A program made the position numbers and the translations under genes. From contig CAZEDL010000006.1 of NCBI GenBank assembly GCA_964510885.1, forward strand, positions 12,531 through 76,530: a DNA stretch of 64,000 nucleotides, read 5' to 3'. This stretch comes from an uncultured Gammaproteobacteria bacterium (GTDB lineage: Bacteria; Patescibacteriota; Patescibacteriia; Magasanikbacterales; GWA2-37-8). Shown in pieces: positions 6,056 through 51,947 of this stretch (position 1 is its first letter; each line of letters opens with the position of its first letter). The notes under the pieces are model-generated. The model saw only the letters and a program-made list of their open reading frames with translations. It was not told the DNA's origin and did not search any database.

Positions 6056-7843
6056 TTACTTGGCCAGCTCGGCCTCCCGCAGGATGCGCTCAACCTGGCC
6101 ATTGGTGATGGGGTGGTAGCCGGCCTTAACCTGTTCAAAGACGCGCCGCGCCCAGGCCAGGCCCTGGACGGTCTTCGCCTTGGCCCGCATCAGCGGGAGG
6201 ACGTACTTCATCCGGCCGCCCTCGACCAGGAAGCGCTCGATCTGGTCGTCCACCGCCGTGTAGCCGGACTCGACGGCGAGGAGGAGGAACGCCCACTTGA
6301 TCTCGGCGAAGCGGTTGGTGCTGAGGTTGAACTCGATGTCGAGCTTGGCGACGAACTCCGGGGTGGCCGGGCGCGGTAGCAGTTCCAGGTAAAGCGTCCA
6401 CTGCGGGTCGGACCAGGCCTGGCCGACCTCGCGGGGCGGGATGATGGACTGCTCAGCGTACCGCGCGACGTCGTCGATGAGCAACGACTCGATCTTCGGA
6501 GCGTTCTCGGGCCAGCCTGGCTCGTAGACGTAGCGCCAGGCCTGGACCTGCTCCAGCGCACCCGGCAACTCGGAGGCCACGAAGTCGAGGAAGGTGGCGG
6601 TATCGATGGCCGTGAAGCGGAACCGGGCGATGTAGGCCCGGATGAACCGGTCGAAGCGCTCACGCCCGACCCTCTCCTCGATGGCCCGGATGAACATCGC
6701 CCCCTCGAAGTACGGCACCCGCGAGAAGATGTCGTCGGGGTCGACGGCGCAGGAGATGTGGGTGGACAGGGCGGTAAGCTCGGGAGTGCCGGTCGTGATG
6801 AAGTGGTGGCAGTCCCGGCTGAACTCTCGGCCACGCAGGGCCATCTGCAGGAGGGCCGCGTCGCGGCCATGGAGCGCCTCGTAGATGCGCCACTCGATGT
6901 AGGTCGTCCAGCCCTCGTTGAGCCAGAACGACCGCCAGTCGGCATTGCCGATCAAGTTGCCGGTCCAGGAGTGGGCCAGCTCGTGGCCGACGACAGCCGC
7001 GCCGCCGGGGATTAGGGTGGGTGTCAGGAAGGTGAGCCGCGGGTTCTCCATGCCCCCGTAGGGGAAGGAGGGCGGCAGGATCAACAGGTCGAACCGCTCC
7101 CAGTCGTACGGGCCGAAGAGCCCCTCGGCCACGTCCATCATCTGTCCGACCTGGGCGAACTCAGCAGCCGCCGCGTCGACCAGCTCCACCTCGGACCAGA
7201 CGCGGCAGCGATCGGTGATGTCGCGCGACACCAGGTCGCCGACGGCGATGGCCATGAGGTAGGCCGGGATGCGCTGGGGCATACGGTATCGCTCGATCGC
7301 GAGCTCGCCCTGCTCCTCGCGGCCGAGGTGGTTGGCCGCCATGAGCGCGCGCAGCGCCTTTGGCACCGTGATCTCCGCCGAGTAGCTGAAGCGGATATTG
7401 GGGGTGTTCTGGCACGGCACCAGGCTCGGTGCGTGCAGGGCCTGGAATTGGGTGAACAGGTATGGGTGCCGCTTGCCCTTGGTCTGCTCAGCGCTGAGCC
7501 ACTGGATGCCGCTGGCCTCAGGCGAGGTGTGGTAGCGGATATTGACCCGGGGCTCGTCCTCGGGGACCATGACGTTCAGCCGCTGGCCTAGGACCGGCTT
7601 CGACTCGTGGAGCTGGAACTCCAGGGTCTGACCGGAGTTGTCGGTGACGGCTTCGATGGTGAGGTCCCGGACGTCGAGATCGACCGTGCCGCCCTGGCCG
7701 AAGTCGATAGTGGCGGTGCAGCTAATCGTCCTGGTGGCGAAGTTGATCTGGGCCTGCAGGTGCAGGTGGGTCATCGTCGGCTGACCCGGGCCGTAGTATG
7801 AATGCGGATCGCGCTTGATTGCTGGCATCTGCATCATGCACAT
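6056..7843 (-). CDS. M1-family zinc aminopeptidase (leukotriene A4 hydrolase/aminopeptidase N-like); high-GC gene
   Basis: HELAHSWTGNL...WLNEGWTTY is the HEXXH-(18)-E gluzincin M1 signature. GC is about 66% against about 50% in flanking DNA. The likely start is MCMMQM at 7843, preceded by GGAGAG; the ORF track extends to 7912. Confidence 0.85.
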   Translation of the reverse strand: MCMMQMPAIKRDPHSYYGPGQPTMTHLHLQAQINFATRTISCTATIDFGQGGTVDLDVRDLTIEAVTDNSGQTLEFQLHESKPVLGQRLNVMVPEDEPRVNIRYHTSPEASGIQWLSAEQTKGKRHPYLFTQFQALHAPSLVPCQNTPNIRFSYSAEITVPKALRALMAANHLGREEQGELAIERYRMPQRIPAYLMAIAVGDLVSRDITDRCRVWSEVELVDAAAAEFAQVGQMMDVAEGLFGPYDWERFDLLILPPSFPYGGMENPRLTFLTPTLIPGGAAVVGHELAHSWTGNLIGNADWRSFWLNEGWTTYIEWRIYEALHGRDAALLQMALRGREFSRDCHHFITTGTPELTALSTHISCAVDPDDIFSRVPYFEGAMFIRAIEERVGRERFDRFIRAYIARFRFTAIDTATFLDFVASELPGALEQVQAWRYVYEPGWPENAPKIESLLIDDVARYAEQSIIPPREVGQAWSDPQWTLYLELLPRPATPEFVAKLDIEFNLSTNRFAEIKWAFLLLAVESGYTAVDDQIERFLVEGGRMKYVLPLMRAKAKTVQGLAWARRVFEQVKAGYHPITNGQVERILREAELAK

Positions 7844-8054
7844 GTTGCTCTCCAATGCTGCCCCAACAGCAAGTTGATACGGGGGTGAGTGTGGTTGATT
7901 ATTCAACACCACTCAGCCCCGTATTCTTCAAAGAACAACATGATATATAAGCACTTGTCGCACTGAATGTCAATCGAGAGATAGTCAATATCAGCAATTA
8001 AATTTTCTAAATAAATAGAGGATTATTTTTTGTCACCCTTGATTCGATTCTTAC

Positions 8055-8100: not shown

Positions 8101-8104
8101 ATAG

Positions 8105-8186
8105 TGCCCAGAGAGAGAATCGAACTCTCATGACCGAAGTCGCGGGATTTTGAGTCCCGTGCGTCTACCAATTCCGCCATCTGGGC
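8105..8186 (-). tRNA. tRNA-Leu (anticodon CAA), class II with long variable arm
   Basis: The reverse complement gives GCCCAGA acceptor, a D-arm TGGCGGAATTGGTAGACGC identical to the E. coli tRNA-Leu D-arm, an anticodon loop CUCAAAA, a long variable arm, a T-arm GAGAGTTCGATTCTCTC and discriminator A. No encoded CCA. Confidence 0.9.
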
Positions 8187-10037: not shown

Positions 10038-11564
10038 TTATGATTTCGGCGGAGTCGGCACTTTACCGCGTTTATACGGAATAATCTGTTTTATCCAGCT
10101 ACTCAGCGACGTATTCTTCAAGGAGTTTTTAATATGCGCCCGCGCGTGGTGCGTCTTTACGGTTTTCAGCCAATCCGGGCTCGGGCCTTTGCGATTCTTG
10201 TCGATCGTGATCGCCACCACGTCGCCGCTTTTAAGCGGTGTATCAAGTGACATCAATTGATCATTCACCCGGGCACCGCTACACTGGTTGCCGATATCGC
10301 TATGAATATGATAGGCAAAATCCACCGGCGTGGCATCTTCGGGCAAATCGATCACGTCGCCCTTCGGGGTGAAGACAAAAATTCGGTTCTGGAAAAAATC
10401 TACTTTCAATTCTTCCATCCCCGACAGGTTCACCAAGATTTCCTGCTGGATTCTGGCCAGTTCCTTGGCCCAGGCCACATCACGCGGGGGCCGGCGCGAC
10501 CCTTTTTCATCATAGAGCCAATGCGCGGCCACACCGAATTCCGCTTCCGCATGCATTTCCGGGGTACGAATCTGGAATTCCACCACCTTGCCATTATCGG
10601 CAAACACCGTGGTATGGAGCGACGAATAGCCGTTCGGCTTCGGCTGCGCAATATAATCTTTAATCCGGCCTTTCAGGGGCCGCCACAATTGGTGAATGAT
10701 CCCGAGCGTGGCATAACAATCGCCCACATCACCCACAATCACGCGCAGCGCCACAATGTCATACATCTTATCCGTTTCCCAGCCTTTACGCTGCAATTTT
10801 TGAAACAAGCTATAGAGCTGTTTTTGTCGGCCGTAGACATCCATTAATTTAATATGCGCCTTAGATAATTCCGTCCGGATTCGGGCCGTTACTTTTTCGA
10901 TCGAATCGCCCTGATCTGCCAGCAGACGATCGCGGATAGTTTTAGTCCGTTCGTATTCCTTGGGATAAATATACGGGAAGGACAAATCTTCCAGAAATCC
11001 TTTGAATTCACCCATGCCGAGGCGGTGCGCGATCGGAGCATAAATCTCAAGGCTCTCGAGCGCAATTCGGTGCCGTTTTTTTTCGGGCAGAGCATCGAGC
11101 GTGGTCAAGTTGTGTGTTCGATCGGCAAATTTAATCACCATCACGCGGACATCTTCGGCCATGGCCACGAACATCTTGCGCAAATTTTCGAGGTAGCGCT
11201 CAATGCCGCGGTATTTGAGTTTGCCAAGCTTCGTAATCCCTTCGATCATTTTGGCAATATCAGCCCCGAAATTTTTTTCAATCTCGGCCAGTGTCACTGC
11301 CGTATCTTCCGGCACATCGTGCAGGAGGGTGGCCACAATAATATTCGTCTCCATGCGCATTGTGGCCAAAATCCAGGCTGCCGCCAGAGGGTGCACAATA
11401 TATGGCTCGCCGGATTTGCGGAATTGTCCCGAGTGAGCGTTGGCTGCAAAATCATAGGCCAACCGCACCATTTCAAGATCCGATGATCCGCGGTACGACC
11501 GGATTTCTTTGACCAGTTTATCAATCGTCAGATCAGCGGGGATAGTAGTGCTGCTATATGACAT
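10038..11564 (-). CDS. Bifunctional (p)ppGpp synthetase/hydrolase Rsh (RelA/SpoT homolog), short form
   Basis: HD hydrolase domain (HD...DVPED), synthetase domain (RTPEMHAEAEFGVAAHWLY) and a TGS region. At 508 aa the C-terminal ACT/RIS region appears to be missing. Confidence 0.9.
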   Translation of the reverse strand: MSYSSTTIPADLTIDKLVKEIRSYRGSSDLEMVRLAYDFAANAHSGQFRKSGEPYIVHPLAAAWILATMRMETNIIVATLLHDVPEDTAVTLAEIEKNFGADIAKMIEGITKLGKLKYRGIERYLENLRKMFVAMAEDVRVMVIKFADRTHNLTTLDALPEKKRHRIALESLEIYAPIAHRLGMGEFKGFLEDLSFPYIYPKEYERTKTIRDRLLADQGDSIEKVTARIRTELSKAHIKLMDVYGRQKQLYSLFQKLQRKGWETDKMYDIVALRVIVGDVGDCYATLGIIHQLWRPLKGRIKDYIAQPKPNGYSSLHTTVFADNGKVVEFQIRTPEMHAEAEFGVAAHWLYDEKGSRRPPRDVAWAKELARIQQEILVNLSGMEELKVDFFQNRIFVFTPKGDVIDLPEDATPVDFAYHIHSDIGNQCSGARVNDQLMSLDTPLKSGDVVAITIDKNRKGPSPDWLKTVKTHHARAHIKNSLKNTSLSSWIKQIIPYKRGKVPTPPKS

Positions 11565-11882
11565 ACAGCAAGAAAAATTTTAATTTTCGATAATAAATCT
11601 CTATGCGCAGTATAGCTTTTTAGACTAAAAATGTCTATAAATCAGTCGTTTTATGGCTAATTTTTGGGTGTAATTACCCTGTGTATAACTCCGTTGACAC
11701 CTCCTGCAGCCATGATAAGTTACATAGTATAAAAAATATGAATCTCATTCACCAAGCTCATCAATTGTTTACTAATAAGGTCAGCATCTTGCCGACCATT
11801 ATTTGCGTAAATAATTTTTACTGGACGAAGGGTGATGAGCGCATAGGTGTAGCCTGATACCAGGCCACAATCTAAAACCACA

Positions 11883-11913
11883 TCACCCTGAATCTAACGA
11901 TCAGGGTGATTTT
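11883..11913 (+). terminator. Terminator-like hairpin TCACCCTGA-loop-TCAGGGTGA followed by TTTT in a noncoding region
   Basis: Seen in sequence. No annotated gene lies upstream on the plus strand, so it could end an unannotated small transcript. Confidence 0.35.
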
Positions 11914-12078
11914 AATTAAGACTGCTCTTTCACATCTGCTAACAATTGCTTGGCCATCAGCCCATACGGGGGTTATGTACTAATGGTCGAGCGATTGTTT
12001 AGTAACTATTTTCAGGCCCATCGGCCTGAAACAGCGCTCGAAAGTCCTGGCTTGCCCAGGCATTCATAAGGAGATCCC

Positions 12079-12285
12079 ATGCCGTTCGCCACCGCTTCCC
12101 AGGAAGATCATCCTGCCACCAGCCCGATCCACCCTGCTGCCCAGGAGTCCGCCGATGCGCCCGCGGACCCTCTGTTCATCGATGAGGTCCACGAGGTCTT
12201 CAACATCCCGCGTCGGCCCTCTGGGCCTGAGGTGGGGGGTGACCCCGTGTACAAGAGGCCACGCGGAACCTACTTCGTGTCGTAA
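12079..12285 (+). CDS. Hypothetical 68-aa protein in a high-GC segment, with a strong Shine-Dalgarno
   Basis: AAGGAG lies 6 nt before the ATG. GC is about 62% with GC3 bias. No recognisable domain. This could instead be part of a structured RNA. Confidence 0.3.
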   Translation: MPFATASQEDHPATSPIHPAAQESADAPADPLFIDEVHEVFNIPRRPSGPEVGGDPVYKRPRGTYFVS

Positions 12286-12320
12286 TCATCGGCACGCAGT
12301 TCACCGCCGGACGCTCGAGC

Positions 12321-12390
12321 GCTCCGGTCTTCCGGTGTTACCGGAACTGATGAGTCCTTTCAGAATAAGATCAGGACGAAACCAAATTCG
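12321..12390 (+). ncRNA. Candidate type III hammerhead ribozyme
   Basis: GUC cleavage triplet at 12327-12329; stem I hairpin UUCCGGU-GUU-ACCGGAA at 12330-12346; CUGAUGA at 12347-12353; stem II GUCCU...AGGAC at 12354-12377; GAA at 12378-12380; then AC starting stem III. All 11 conserved core nucleotides are in canonical positions. Stem III is only about 3 bp (A-U, C-G, C-G). Confidence 0.6.
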
Positions 12391-12397
12391 TGAGTTA

Positions 12398-12426
12398 CCA
12401 GTTTGTACTGGCTTTATTTGTTTTTT
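12398..12426 (+). terminator. Hairpin ACCAGT-ttgt-ACTGG followed by a T-rich run, downstream of the hammerhead motif
   Basis: Seen in sequence. Confidence 0.4.
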
Positions 12427-12467
12427 TAAATTAAAATATAACCTATTAAAATAAAATTGCCTATAGT

Positions 12468-12896
12468 ATGTCAAAAAATAAACCTGAAGTCCCATTCTGG
12501 GATTTCCCCCCAGAAAATACCGGTTCAGTTTTGGAAGAAAATGGCAGGCCAGTGCGTGACCGAAATGCCGCGGATGTTTTTAATAAATTAGAAAGAAAGG
12601 CGAATGAATGGGGAATTGATCTTGGCTCACTAAAAATTTTAGACAGACCTGAATTGATTGCCCAGTTATTAATTGATAAAAAAGTTGCAATTGTAGCAGA
12701 CGGCCCTTTTATAAATGATCATGATATGCAGACAATAGCGGATGCTGTTGTAGAGGATTGGCGCCCGGCATCTGGCACTTTGAGCGATCACGAGCGACAA
12801 AACTTATCTGCATTAGTGTATGACTGCCTCTCTCTAAACGAAGGTGAAGAGGAATTATTGGCAGCATATAATAAAGGAATTAAAAATAAAGAGTAA
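12468..12896 (+). CDS. Hypothetical protein (142 aa, acidic, no recognised domain)
   Basis: ORF only. Confidence 0.5.
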   Translation: MSKNKPEVPFWDFPPENTGSVLEENGRPVRDRNAADVFNKLERKANEWGIDLGSLKILDRPELIAQLLIDKKVAIVADGPFINDHDMQTIADAVVEDWRPASGTLSDHERQNLSALVYDCLSLNEGEEELLAAYNKGIKNKE

Positions 12897-12931
12897 TCTA
12901 TATTATTTAATTGGTATCGTAAAATATCCTC

Positions 12932-12960
12932 TTGACAAAATCCTCAAACTGTGCTATACT
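12932..12960 (+). promoter_or_regulatory. Near-consensus sigma70 promoter TTGACA-17-TGcTATACT (extended -10)
   Basis: TTGACA at 12932-12937, TATACT at 12955-12960, TG at -15/-14. Confidence 0.6.
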
Positions 12961-12965
12961 ACCAT

Positions 12966-13056
12966 TTGTGATACAAAGAAAACCTTAGCGCCAACGTATA
13001 ACCCCACTAGTAATAGCGGGGTTATATCGTTTTAAAAGGTATAGATGGCCAAATAG
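12966..13056 (+). ncRNA. Candidate small RNA 1 (about 90 nt), promoter-to-terminator unit
   Basis: It follows the promoter at 12932-12960. It contains the hairpin AACCCC-12nt-GGGGTT (13001-13024) and ends at GGCC-AAATA-GGCC followed by TTTTTT (13037-13056). No plausible ORF and no downstream plus-strand gene. Confidence 0.4.
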
Positions 13057-13082
13057 GCCGTTTTTTGTTTAAGCGTGGTCAA

Positions 13083-13131
13083 TAAACCTCTGGATTCCCG
13101 TTAGAGTTTACCTCCAGCGTAGGCGGGGCGG
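13083..13131 (-). repeat. Palindromic repeat family A, copy 1 (GGATTCCCG...CGGGAATGACA)
   Basis: Its reverse complement (GTCATTCCCGCCCCGCCTACGCTGGAGGTAAACTCTAACGGGAATCC) is near-identical to 52126-52173. Confidence 0.7.
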
Positions 13132-13179
13132 GAATGACACTAAAAAATAGTATTCACCAAGCTTTTTTTCTTTAAACCC

Positions 13180-13207
13180 TTGCATTTTTAGCGATTTTTG
13201 CTATACT
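13180..13207 (+). promoter_or_regulatory. Second near-consensus promoter TTGCAT-16-TGcTATACT
   Basis: TTGCAT at 13180-13185, TATACT at 13202-13207, extended -10 TG. Confidence 0.55.
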
Positions 13208-13212
13208 GCGCG

Positions 13213-13306
13213 CGTAGGCCTCAATCGGGCCTTTGTATCACCTTTGGCATCAAGGCATACCCTTTGAGCCTACATTAAAAACATCCCGTGGCGGGATGTT
13301 TTTTGA
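13213..13306 (+). ncRNA. Candidate small RNA 2 (about 93 nt)
   Basis: It starts after the promoter at 13180-13207. An 8-bp closing stem GUAGGCUC...GAGCCUAC encloses a CCUUUG-repeat region. It ends at the terminator AACATCCCG-tg-GCGGGATGTT followed by TTTTTT (13280-13306), which also serves the convergent gene at 13321. Confidence 0.4.
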
Positions 13307-51122: not shown

Positions 51123-51947
51123 TTACCACCATGTAATATTGACATGACTCCAGGCCTCCCACCAACGGCTCCAGTTCCATTTCCAGGGCCAACCGTAGGT
51201 GGCCAGCCGCTTCCACCAGGGTGGCAGATGTGTGGTGCCGAAGAGTCGGTCAGCGATAGCCAAGCGACTGGTGATTTCGAGCCACATGCTCGGGCCACCC
51301 TTCATCGAGAAGCCGAACTGGCGGCCATAGCCATGGTGCAATCCATGGTGCGGGCGACAGCCAGCAATCAGCCAGCCATAAGCCCCGGTCGGCTGCCATT
51401 CGGTGTGGAGGGTAAAGTGCACCACATCGATCCACCAGGCTTTGCCGATGGCGTACGTAATGGCCGCTAGCGCCACCCGCGGGCTCAAGAACCAAAGCCA
51501 CCCGAATACCGCCCAGTCAGCGAGGACAGCTGCTGGCATTGAGCGGAGCGGGAAGAAGAGCTCGGACAGATCGCTCGGGTTCGCATGGTGCGCCCCGTGG
51601 CTCCGGCGTGGGCCACGGGGTAAGATTAGGCTCGTCCATTTCAGCACACCGCGCGGCACATGCTGCACATTGCCATGGATGAACCATTCAAGAGAGAGCT
51701 TGATGAACAGAATCAGGCCGATCGCGATGAGGGCGAGCACCCAGTGATGCGGAGTGCTGGTGAAGCGCGGTACGCGAAAAAAGGCGGCAAGATGGGTGAG
51801 GAATAGCAGGGCCAGGAACCACGGGGTCGGCTCCCTGATGATAATGGCGAGCGCCTTCTCAAAGGTGTCAGTGTTCGGAATAAAAAAGCTCGGGCTCGGC
51901 TTGGCGTTAGTCGGAGTCATGGCAAACCTCCTTGCCTTTTTTGGCAT
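51123..51947 (-). CDS. Fatty acid hydroxylase superfamily membrane protein (sterol desaturase-like; histidine boxes)
   Basis: His clusters HGAHH and HHGLHH in a multi-TM context. GC is about 57%, above the background. Confidence 0.55.
   Translation of the reverse strand: MPKKARRFAMTPTNAKPSPSFFIPNTDTFEKALAIIIREPTPWFLALLFLTHLAAFFRVPRFTSTPHHWVLALIAIGLILFIKLSLEWFIHGNVQHVPRGVLKWTSLILPRGPRRSHGAHHANPSDLSELFFPLRSMPAAVLADWAVFGWLWFLSPRVALAAITYAIGKAWWIDVVHFTLHTEWQPTGAYGWLIAGCRPHHGLHHGYGRQFGFSMKGGPSMWLEITSRLAIADRLFGTTHLPPWWKRLATYGWPWKWNWSRWWEAWSHVNITWW

Follow-up and report, generated by a model that had tools for sequence, protein, structure and literature searches.

A putative phage-type hammerhead ribozyme beside strain-variable, GC-rich DNA in a Candidatus Magasanikbacteria chromosome

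A short GC-rich block beside the RelA/SpoT homolog gene (rsh) of a Candidatus Magasanikbacteria genome (candidate phyla radiation (CPR)/Patescibacteria) raises the question of what such a block is, and which of the features in and around it are genuine. The block lies in a 64,000-nucleotide stretch of DNA (contig CAZEDL010000006.1, positions 12,531 to 76,530; hereafter the window, whose own numbering is used throughout), within the gap between rsh (508 amino acids; 10038-11564, minus strand) and the next gene, which a first-pass annotation had put at about 900 bp and which measures 903 bp (11565-12467). That annotation read the block as a compact acquired cassette made up of two leader hairpins, a ribosome-binding site, a 68-codon open reading frame (ORF), a hammerhead motif and a terminator, or alternatively as a large structured RNA misread as an ORF. 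We find that the strongest element of the locus is the ribozyme, rather than the ORF cassette. On balance, the block is probably foreign DNA captured at an insertion hot spot, ahead of a resident phage-type hammerhead that would trim the 3' end of the transcript.

The candidate ribozyme, a complete type III hammerhead judged by its core motif, its Rfam match and its comparison with a relative, occupies positions 12326-12383 on the plus strand, as do all of the following elements. Its open helix III (GGU 12326-12328 with ACC 12381-12383; 3 bp) leads into C17 of the GUC triplet (C12329), which places the predicted cleavage between 12329 and 12330. A perfect 6-bp stem I with the loop UGUUA (12330-12335 with 12341-12346) is followed by the CUGAUGA core (12347-12353), a 5-bp helix II (GUCCU/AGGAC; 12354-12358 with 12373-12377) with a 14-nt loop, and the GAAA core (12378-12381, GAA being 12378-12380). 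The invariant type III core is present (C3 U4 G5 A6 N7 G8 A9 and G12 A13 A14), the A15.1-U16.1 pair (A12381-U12328) and G10.1-C11.1 are intact, and H17 is C, not G; helices I and II are closed by loops, helix III is open, and there is no mispair beside the core. The hammerhead core pattern occurs once in the 64-kb window, where 0.06 occurrences are expected by chance, and the copy matches the Rfam family Hammerhead_3 (RF00008) with 23.8 bits and a local E of 0.019, so that the hammerhead motif of the first-pass annotation is borne out. No second hammerhead or other Rfam ribozyme was found on either strand of the gap (11560-12480) at E up to 10. In terms of sequence, the candidate has all the defining features of a type III hammerhead save a score above the Rfam threshold, and such ribozymes are missed by annotation at that threshold.

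The same hammerhead is found in a relative. The rsh product matches 80 loci in metagenome-assembled genomes of Magasanikbacteria and Patescibacteria, the nearest by amino acid identity being L004 (90%), L005 (87%), and L006 and L007 (76-78%). At the syntenic position of L005, whose rsh is 80% identical to that of the window in nucleotides, a hammerhead occupies L005 2601-2534 on the minus strand (29.3 bits against Hammerhead_3, E 5e-4). All 44 of the 44 positions outside loop 2 are identical in the two copies, including an uninterrupted stretch of 33 nt (GGUCUUCCGGUGUUACCGGAACUGAUGAGUCCU), and all differences fall within loop 2. The conserved blocks that the two genomes share in this region are 11671-11918 (72% identical; a 39-codon ORF with its terminator hairpin) and 12326-12388, and the identity of the ribozyme amid adjacent non-coding DNA that cannot be aligned implies constraint. 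When the pair was aligned with 12 phage or metagenome type III hammerheads (14 members), 94.6% of the cells paired, compared with 72.6% in shuffles, and 9 pairs showed compensatory changes; the observed score was reached by none of 500 shuffles. A covariance model of these 14 sequences scored the window copy at 58.7 bits and the L005 copy at 58.6 bits, both being part of its training set, and detected no further hammerhead when run on the window and 85 related loci, which together span about 0.98 Mb.

Hammerheads of similar build are known from phages and prophages (Perreault et al., 2011, PMC3088659; RF00008). Like the window copy, these have an identical catalytic core, GUCC/GGAC in helix II, a 6-bp stem I with a UGUUA or UGUGUUA-type loop, a short and open helix III, a stable hairpin directly upstream, a stop codon about 40 nt before the cleavage site, and variable neighbour genes. 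We compared the locus with 130 canonical hammerheads from viral contigs, of which 30 non-redundant type III examples share this build (short open helix III, stem I of 5-7 bp, UGUGUUA-like loops) and 25 were examined for gene context. In the set of 30, the 45 nt directly upstream of the ribozyme fold at a mean of -16.5 kcal/mol, compared with -7.9 kcal/mol for controls taken 150 nt further upstream (Wilcoxon p = 5e-6). At most of the 25 loci the upstream frame stops 13-60 nt before the cleavage site and the following ORF usually starts about 50-90 nt beyond that site, an arrangement that the window's succession of ORF with stop codon, hairpin and hammerhead fits. The window copy differs from the phage class in that it stands in a CPR chromosome without surrounding phage genes, scores below the Rfam threshold, has a helix III of 3 bp instead of 4-5 bp, and shares with L005 an expanded loop 2 (14-16 nt versus 4-6 nt); moreover, what follows it is a terminator or promoter, not directly the next ORF as in phages. 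By this analogy, the ribozyme is best filed as an unannotated, newly recognised phage-type type III hammerhead with an expanded loop 2 in a CPR chromosome; a full-text literature search linking hammerhead ribozymes with Patescibacteria found none.

Two further observations concern the viral hammerheads themselves. At ten viral loci with type III hammerheads (L102, L107, L116, L130, L133, L136, L154, L185, L193 and L194), a near-identical hairpin, GUGUCUU(C/U)AAAGACAC, precedes the GUC by a few nucleotides, and its conservation in sequence, not merely in structure, suggests that it is part of the phage ribozyme module. Separately, one viral contig (L146, 1892-6179) holds, in a span of 4.3 kb, five type I hammerheads that are nearly identical, each after a short, gene-sized interval.

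What hammerheads do in bacteria is for the most part still unclear, and a part in processing 3' untranslated regions (UTRs) or polycistronic transcripts has been suggested for the hammerhead and twister ribozymes of bacteria (PMC6765202). The 3'-UTR twister and hammerhead ribozymes of Felletti et al. (2017), as far as they are summarised in PMC6765202, likewise stand after a stop codon and before a terminator, and in the window, too, the predicted cleavage would cut the terminator off the mRNA, whose 3' end and stability it would then determine. In that summary those ribozymes follow recognisable genes, whereas the ORF in the window is an orphan of doubtful coding status. Another comparison is with viroid-like circular RNAs and retrozymes (PMC7761336), with which the window shares a small (about 350 nt), GC-rich and highly self-complementary segment adjoining a type III hammerhead; here, however, the unit is encoded in DNA at a fixed chromosomal site and its body differs between two genomes. 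A viroid-like circular RNA or retrozyme was rejected, since a single ribozyme without a unit repeat yields no monomer that could be excised or circularised. Diversity-generating retroelement, retron and integron cassette were dropped as well, there being no reverse transcriptase, repeat pair or attC-like conserved end among the neighbours viewed (parA, parB, rsh, a 142-amino-acid orphan, a membrane protein and topA).

Directly upstream of the ribozyme, the two genomes share nothing recognisable. The strain-variable segment of the window (11919-12325, plus strand; GC-rich core 12007-12325) does not align with its L005 counterpart (L005 3067-2598): local alignment scores do not exceed those of shuffles, whether same or opposite strands are compared, nor do they in any of the six frames. 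A conserved 'leader' that appeared faintly in a MAFFT alignment of the two inserts was rejected on the negative outcome of this local-alignment test. The core contains 63.6% GC over 12010-12325, between a left flank of 37.6% and a right flank of 22.6%, a level reached by about 3% of 320-nt windows across the 64 kb; the GC-rich insert of the first-pass annotation thus exists, although the interval then assigned to it (12040-12430) contains 57.3% GC and not 62%. In 200-nt windows GC content peaks at about 65% here and about 68% in L005. Both inserts carry, in the orientation of the ribozyme, an ORF led by a Shine-Dalgarno (SD)-like motif: 68 codons in the window (12079-12285, plus strand), preceded by AAGGAG at 12068-12073, 5 nt before the ATG at 12079 and in agreement with the earlier annotation, and 60 codons in L005, with GGAGG 7 nt before the ATG. 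Such motifs are rare in this host. They occur at the listed start in only 1-2 of the 54 window ORFs of at least 120 amino acids, and in 6 of the 54 if any in-frame start within the first 40 codons is counted, other GC-rich genes among them. Since host genes are almost devoid of SD motifs, the motif marks foreign origin and is not proof of translation by the host. Being strain-specific and compositionally foreign, and carrying a foreign-type ribosome-binding signal, the GC-rich part appears from its sequence to be acquired, a conclusion that we regard as supported.

A cassette in the earlier sense, however, holds only in part. The GC-rich portion was acquired as claimed, but it does not form one unit with its surroundings: the hammerhead is resident and shared with L005, the insert differs from genome to genome, and the terminator and the 142-amino-acid gene behind the hammerhead are both absent from L005. 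The first-pass annotation had also named an assembly chimera as one finding that would undo its reading, and the abrupt change of composition at both edges of the block might suggest one, a GC-rich fragment of another organism having been joined in silico. Logan assemblies made from two different runs (SRR16481186 and SRR16481187) match the window at 100% identity over 11500-13046 and 11901-13044, and both thereby cross the two composition junctions; together with the same architecture found independently in L005, this effectively refutes a chimera, to which we attach hardly any probability.

How the surrounding locus varies among relatives is in keeping with the picture of foreign DNA beside a resident ribozyme. 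The order tRNA-Leu, parA, parB, rsh, variable space, two small conserved non-coding units, 158-amino-acid membrane protein and topA is kept across relatives, and the more distant L006 and L007 lack the entire block 11565-13170. In L004, a gene for an ISAs1-like transposase with inverted ends lies in the space upstream of rsh (L004 1-1400), where the contig ends; as this insertion sequence (IS) sits there, the site takes up insertions. As part of the best explanation, we propose a hot spot for insertions in the space between rsh and the two conserved units, which resemble small RNAs. Insertions make a mosaic of the locus, with a small number of conserved islands left between them, one of which is the hammerhead. 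As to other relatives, the contig of L255 (rsh 83% identical in nucleotides) stops 50 nt short of the insert, those of L257 and L258 end within a homolog of the 142-amino-acid gene, and the flank of L264 is too short. L005 holds a second ORF of its own between rsh and the conserved small ORF, of 227 codons (L005 3812-4495, minus strand; 70% GC; rich in Ala, Pro and Gln), which has no counterpart in the window and matches the holin (E 8e-4) and Rz-like spanin (E 6e-3) families of PHROGs weakly.

The explanation given at the outset rests on a ribozyme core that is conserved in synteny, on two inserts that lack homology and bear foreign signals, and on the agreement with the phage layout. Transcripts would enter from upstream, most likely from a conserved promoter at about 11694, and would read through past a 39-codon ORF and a leaky, attenuator-like terminator. 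Self-cleavage of the ribozyme in vivo between C12329 and U12330 would free the upstream RNA, leaving it a terminal 2',3'-cyclic phosphate and, directly before that, a GC-rich 9-bp hairpin (12306-12328, plus strand; it abuts and overlaps the 5' strand of helix III), which should protect the new end from 3' exonucleases. The ribozyme would remain on a fragment of about 95 nt ending at a weak terminator (12398-12427). The upstream segment (11919-12325) would lie outside this conserved machinery, as foreign, GC-rich and palindrome-rich DNA, most likely from a high-GC donor that uses SD signals. Because the DNA ahead differs completely in the two genomes that share the ribozyme, we infer that the ribozyme acts as a fixed boundary and 3'-processing module beside which unrelated pieces were placed, a pattern also seen in prophages, where individual genes next to hammerheads change in identity (PMC3088659). 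The locus offers a clean natural comparison in which the ribozyme is constant while both sides change, as is expected of a reusable 3'-end or boundary module and not of a part of a particular gene.

Several observations weigh against this explanation. Both hammerhead copies score below the Rfam gathering threshold of 48.5 bits, which we attribute to the insertion of 14-16 nt in loop 2 and the short helix III. With only 3 bp in helix III, the cleavage-competent fold lies above the minimum-free-energy fold by 7.7 kcal/mol in the window, where the upstream hairpin sequesters the GGU strand, and by 1.9 kcal/mol in L005; at this cost, activity might be slow or conditional in the window. These values would suit an inactive relic or look-alike in a region of decaying, functionless foreign DNA. 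We consider a relic improbable, given that the core is complete, that 44 of 44 positions have stayed identical beside unalignable non-coding DNA, and that hammerheads of the phage class normally have a short open helix III after a hairpin. The stems of the window and L005 are identical and therefore show no covariation between them, and conservation at this site rests on these two genomes. The phage origin of the hammerhead is a matter of analogy, as neither viral nor JGI metagenome contigs yielded a further copy of the subtype: in viral contigs, a pattern of stem I plus core gave one chance match (L003) and a stricter pattern and a long-loop-2 pattern gave none, and in JGI metagenome contigs two pattern scans gave 0 and 8 matches, the latter unrelated beyond being hammerheads. 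No donor emerged when both inserts were searched by blastn and tblastn against phage and plasmid collections, apart from one 34-nt chance match. With two genomes and synonymous sites near saturation, 'replaced' is not strictly separable from 'diverged beyond recognition while staying GC-rich'. Lastly, a consensus scan found no promoter directly ahead of the insert, and transcription across the insert is assumed for that reason.

A bolder version would make the hammerhead itself promote exchange, foreign segments being captured or swapped precisely at its cleavage site. This would explain why the identity between the window and L005 begins exactly at GGUC, 4 nt before the cleavage site. Homologous recombination between ribozyme copies of about 60 nt on phages or mobile DNA is a conceivable route, as is the joining of RNA at 5'-OH and 2',3'-cyclic-phosphate ends followed by copying back into DNA. 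We regard such a role as very improbable; if true, it would give bacterial hammerheads a part in gene shuffling.

Does the block, then, encode a protein? In phage genomics, morons, or mosaic gene cassettes with conserved boundary sequences, are an established concept. Like a moron, the window holds a unit of foreign composition, with its own translation signal, between conserved flanks and with a content that varies among relatives; unlike a moron, it has no phage backbone and no detected promoter of its own, and its right boundary is a ribozyme. If the block were a small-protein cassette of this type, a 68-amino-acid acidic, disordered protein would be translated, the hammerhead would process the 3' end of its mRNA, and the slot in L005 would hold a different protein. 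A strong SD motif and ATG in ribozyme orientation in both genomes speak for such a cassette, and so does the distance of 44 nt from the stop codon to the cleavage site, which is typical of phage gene-hairpin-hammerhead units; in L005, however, this distance is 154 nt. Both ORFs also show GC1 > GC2 < GC3 across the three codon positions (0.68/0.51/0.75 in the window, 0.66/0.54/0.74 in L005), but GC3 falls far short of the 0.90 of a true gene of equal overall GC, an M1 peptidase gene of the window (0.64/0.43/0.90), so that the earlier claim of a GC3 bias like that of the window's high-GC genes does not stand.

Other evidence on the 68-codon ORF also points away from a protein. No homolog of its product was found by a word-indexed search of 5.8 billion clusters or by full phmmer in 1.84 billion representatives, and an exact look-up returned no recorded gene. 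Neither Pfam, run on all long frames of both inserts, nor PHROGs gave a match, in line with the earlier statement that the product has no recognisable domain, and the window ORF shows no similarity to the insert ORF of L005. AlphaFold predicted no secondary structure (pLDDT 61, pTM 0.11). The length of the ORF, which had seemed notable, is within the reach of chance: 27% of shuffles of this stop-poor, GC-rich segment contain an ORF of at least 68 codons. The gene caller did not call the ORF on the Logan contigs, and the SD motif that precedes it is barely used by the host. From its sequence properties we judge that the 68-codon ORF, an orphan that may be translated, is more likely not a maintained protein gene, and we would put coding as somewhat improbable; the whole moron-type cassette appears unlikely, though not negligibly so. 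On present evidence the 68-amino-acid ORF should not be called a protein, and a near-consensus SD motif plus an ORF in GC-rich DNA is weak gene evidence where the host does not use SD signals.

Two observations on other GC-rich genes belong here. The gene for the M1-family (leukotriene-A4-hydrolase-like) peptidase (618 amino acids; 6056-7912, minus strand), at 66% GC and adjoining tRNA-Leu (8104-8186), is clearly foreign, the genome having about 49% GC. The rare SD-like motifs of the window precede GC-rich, apparently acquired genes, for example an internal ATG of this peptidase ORF and the gene at 51123-51947.

If the ORF is incidental, the block might instead specify a structured non-coding RNA of about 300-400 nt whose exact 3' end is made by the hammerhead. 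The inserts are rich in self-complementary sequence. Both leader hairpins of the first-pass annotation are present on the plus strand, one a perfect 9-bp hairpin at the left edge of the GC-rich core (TTTCAGGCC-catc-GGCCTGAAA; 12010-12031, inverted repeat I13) and the other CCTGG...CCAGG at 12045-12059, and a 15-nt inverted repeat of 87% complementarity (I4; left arm 12033-12047, right arm 12309-12323, plus strand) forms the closing helix of the minimum-free-energy fold and brackets the ORF region, which a long-range helix does in L005 too. Folding z-scores against dinucleotide shuffles are -3.8 for the window (441 nt) and -7.6 for L005 (471 nt), and against mononucleotide shuffles -3.2 and -7.6, compared with about 0 for true GC-rich coding sequence; furthermore, the upstream product of cleavage would keep only GGUC of the ribozyme. 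The opposite strand folds equally strongly, though, which points to Watson-Crick palindromes in DNA and not to an RNA-specific fold. The two versions share no sequence conservation and no demonstrable structural conservation, Rfam matched nothing but the hammerhead, and neither a defined 5' end nor a second ribozyme was found. The idea of a structured RNA misread as an ORF keeps a slight advantage over a real protein gene, given the lack of homologs and of a predicted fold, a length within chance and a folding energy far lower than in shuffles, although the strand symmetry weakens the last point; as an account of the whole block, a discrete structured RNA seems rather improbable.

The same strand symmetry would be expected of a palindromic element acting at the level of DNA, such as a non-autonomous mobile element resembling miniature inverted-repeat or palindrome-associated transposable elements (MITE/PATE), or a recombination substrate, lying beside the hammerhead and having its RNA features as by-products. 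The 15-nt inverted repeat bounds 12033-12323 with hairpins at both ends, and the locus takes insertions, as the IS in L004 shows. Yet neither the 64-kb window nor about 1 Mb of related loci contains a second copy of the insert, no target-site duplication and no nearby transposase was seen, and the inserts of the window and L005 have no terminal sequences in common, which leaves an element of this kind with a small probability.

The left conserved flank would supply the transcripts that the capture of foreign DNA ahead of a resident ribozyme calls for. A probable promoter (11694-11721, plus strand) consists of TTGACA (11694-11699), a 16-nt spacer and TAAGTT (11716-11721), its role being suggested by sequence; owing to its weak -10 hexamer, it went unlisted in the consensus scan. 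Its TTGACA and TAnGTT also occur in L005 and L255, and no other promoter-like site ahead of the insert is conserved. Next comes a 39-codon ORF (MNLIHQAHQLFTNKVSILPTIICVNNFYWTKGDERIGVA, MNLIHQAHQLF...KGDERIGVA; 11738-11857, plus strand), kept in L005 (38 amino acids) and in L255 (79% amino acid identity, with 3 synonymous and 8 non-synonymous codon changes), which from its sequence may encode a leader peptide. The ORF is succeeded by a terminator hairpin on the plus strand (within 11829-11918; arms 11882-11891 and 11901-11910, then TTTTAATT; inverted repeats I1 and I12), whose 10-bp stem is unchanged in L005 and whose 5' arm has an alternative pairing partner at 11829-11837, inside the 39-codon ORF. 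Small ORF and terminator with alternative pairing look like an attenuator arrangement, with a putative regulatory role.

On the other side of the ribozyme, a weak intrinsic terminator (12398-12427, plus strand) is made of the hairpin CCAGT-ttgt-ACTGG (12398-12411; a 5-bp stem with 3 G-C pairs) and a T-rich tail (CTTTATTTGT), in agreement with the T-rich hairpin noted earlier. The AT-rich gene directly behind hammerhead and terminator (12468-12896, plus strand; 40% GC, GC3 0.31) encodes the 142-amino-acid orphan; a word-indexed protein search returned only the product itself, and in L257 a homolog with 33% identity over 60 amino acids occupies the corresponding place.

Further downstream lie the two small conserved non-coding units. 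The first (12932-13066) resembles a small RNA gene: its promoter is close to consensus (TTGACA, 17 nt, TG-n-TATACT), and it contains two hairpins as well as a terminator at 13043-13063 with a T-run; its only Rfam match, the rimP leader, is below threshold (27.3 versus 47 bits) and probably spurious. Its core (12968-13031) is 97% identical to L005, and 12952-13066 is 87% identical to L257 and L258. The second (13173-13305) combines a -10 box (TATACT) with a long hairpin and a terminator formed by CATCCCGTGGCGGGATG and a T-run; it matches no Rfam family and can be aligned even with the distant relatives L006, L007, L259 and L262.

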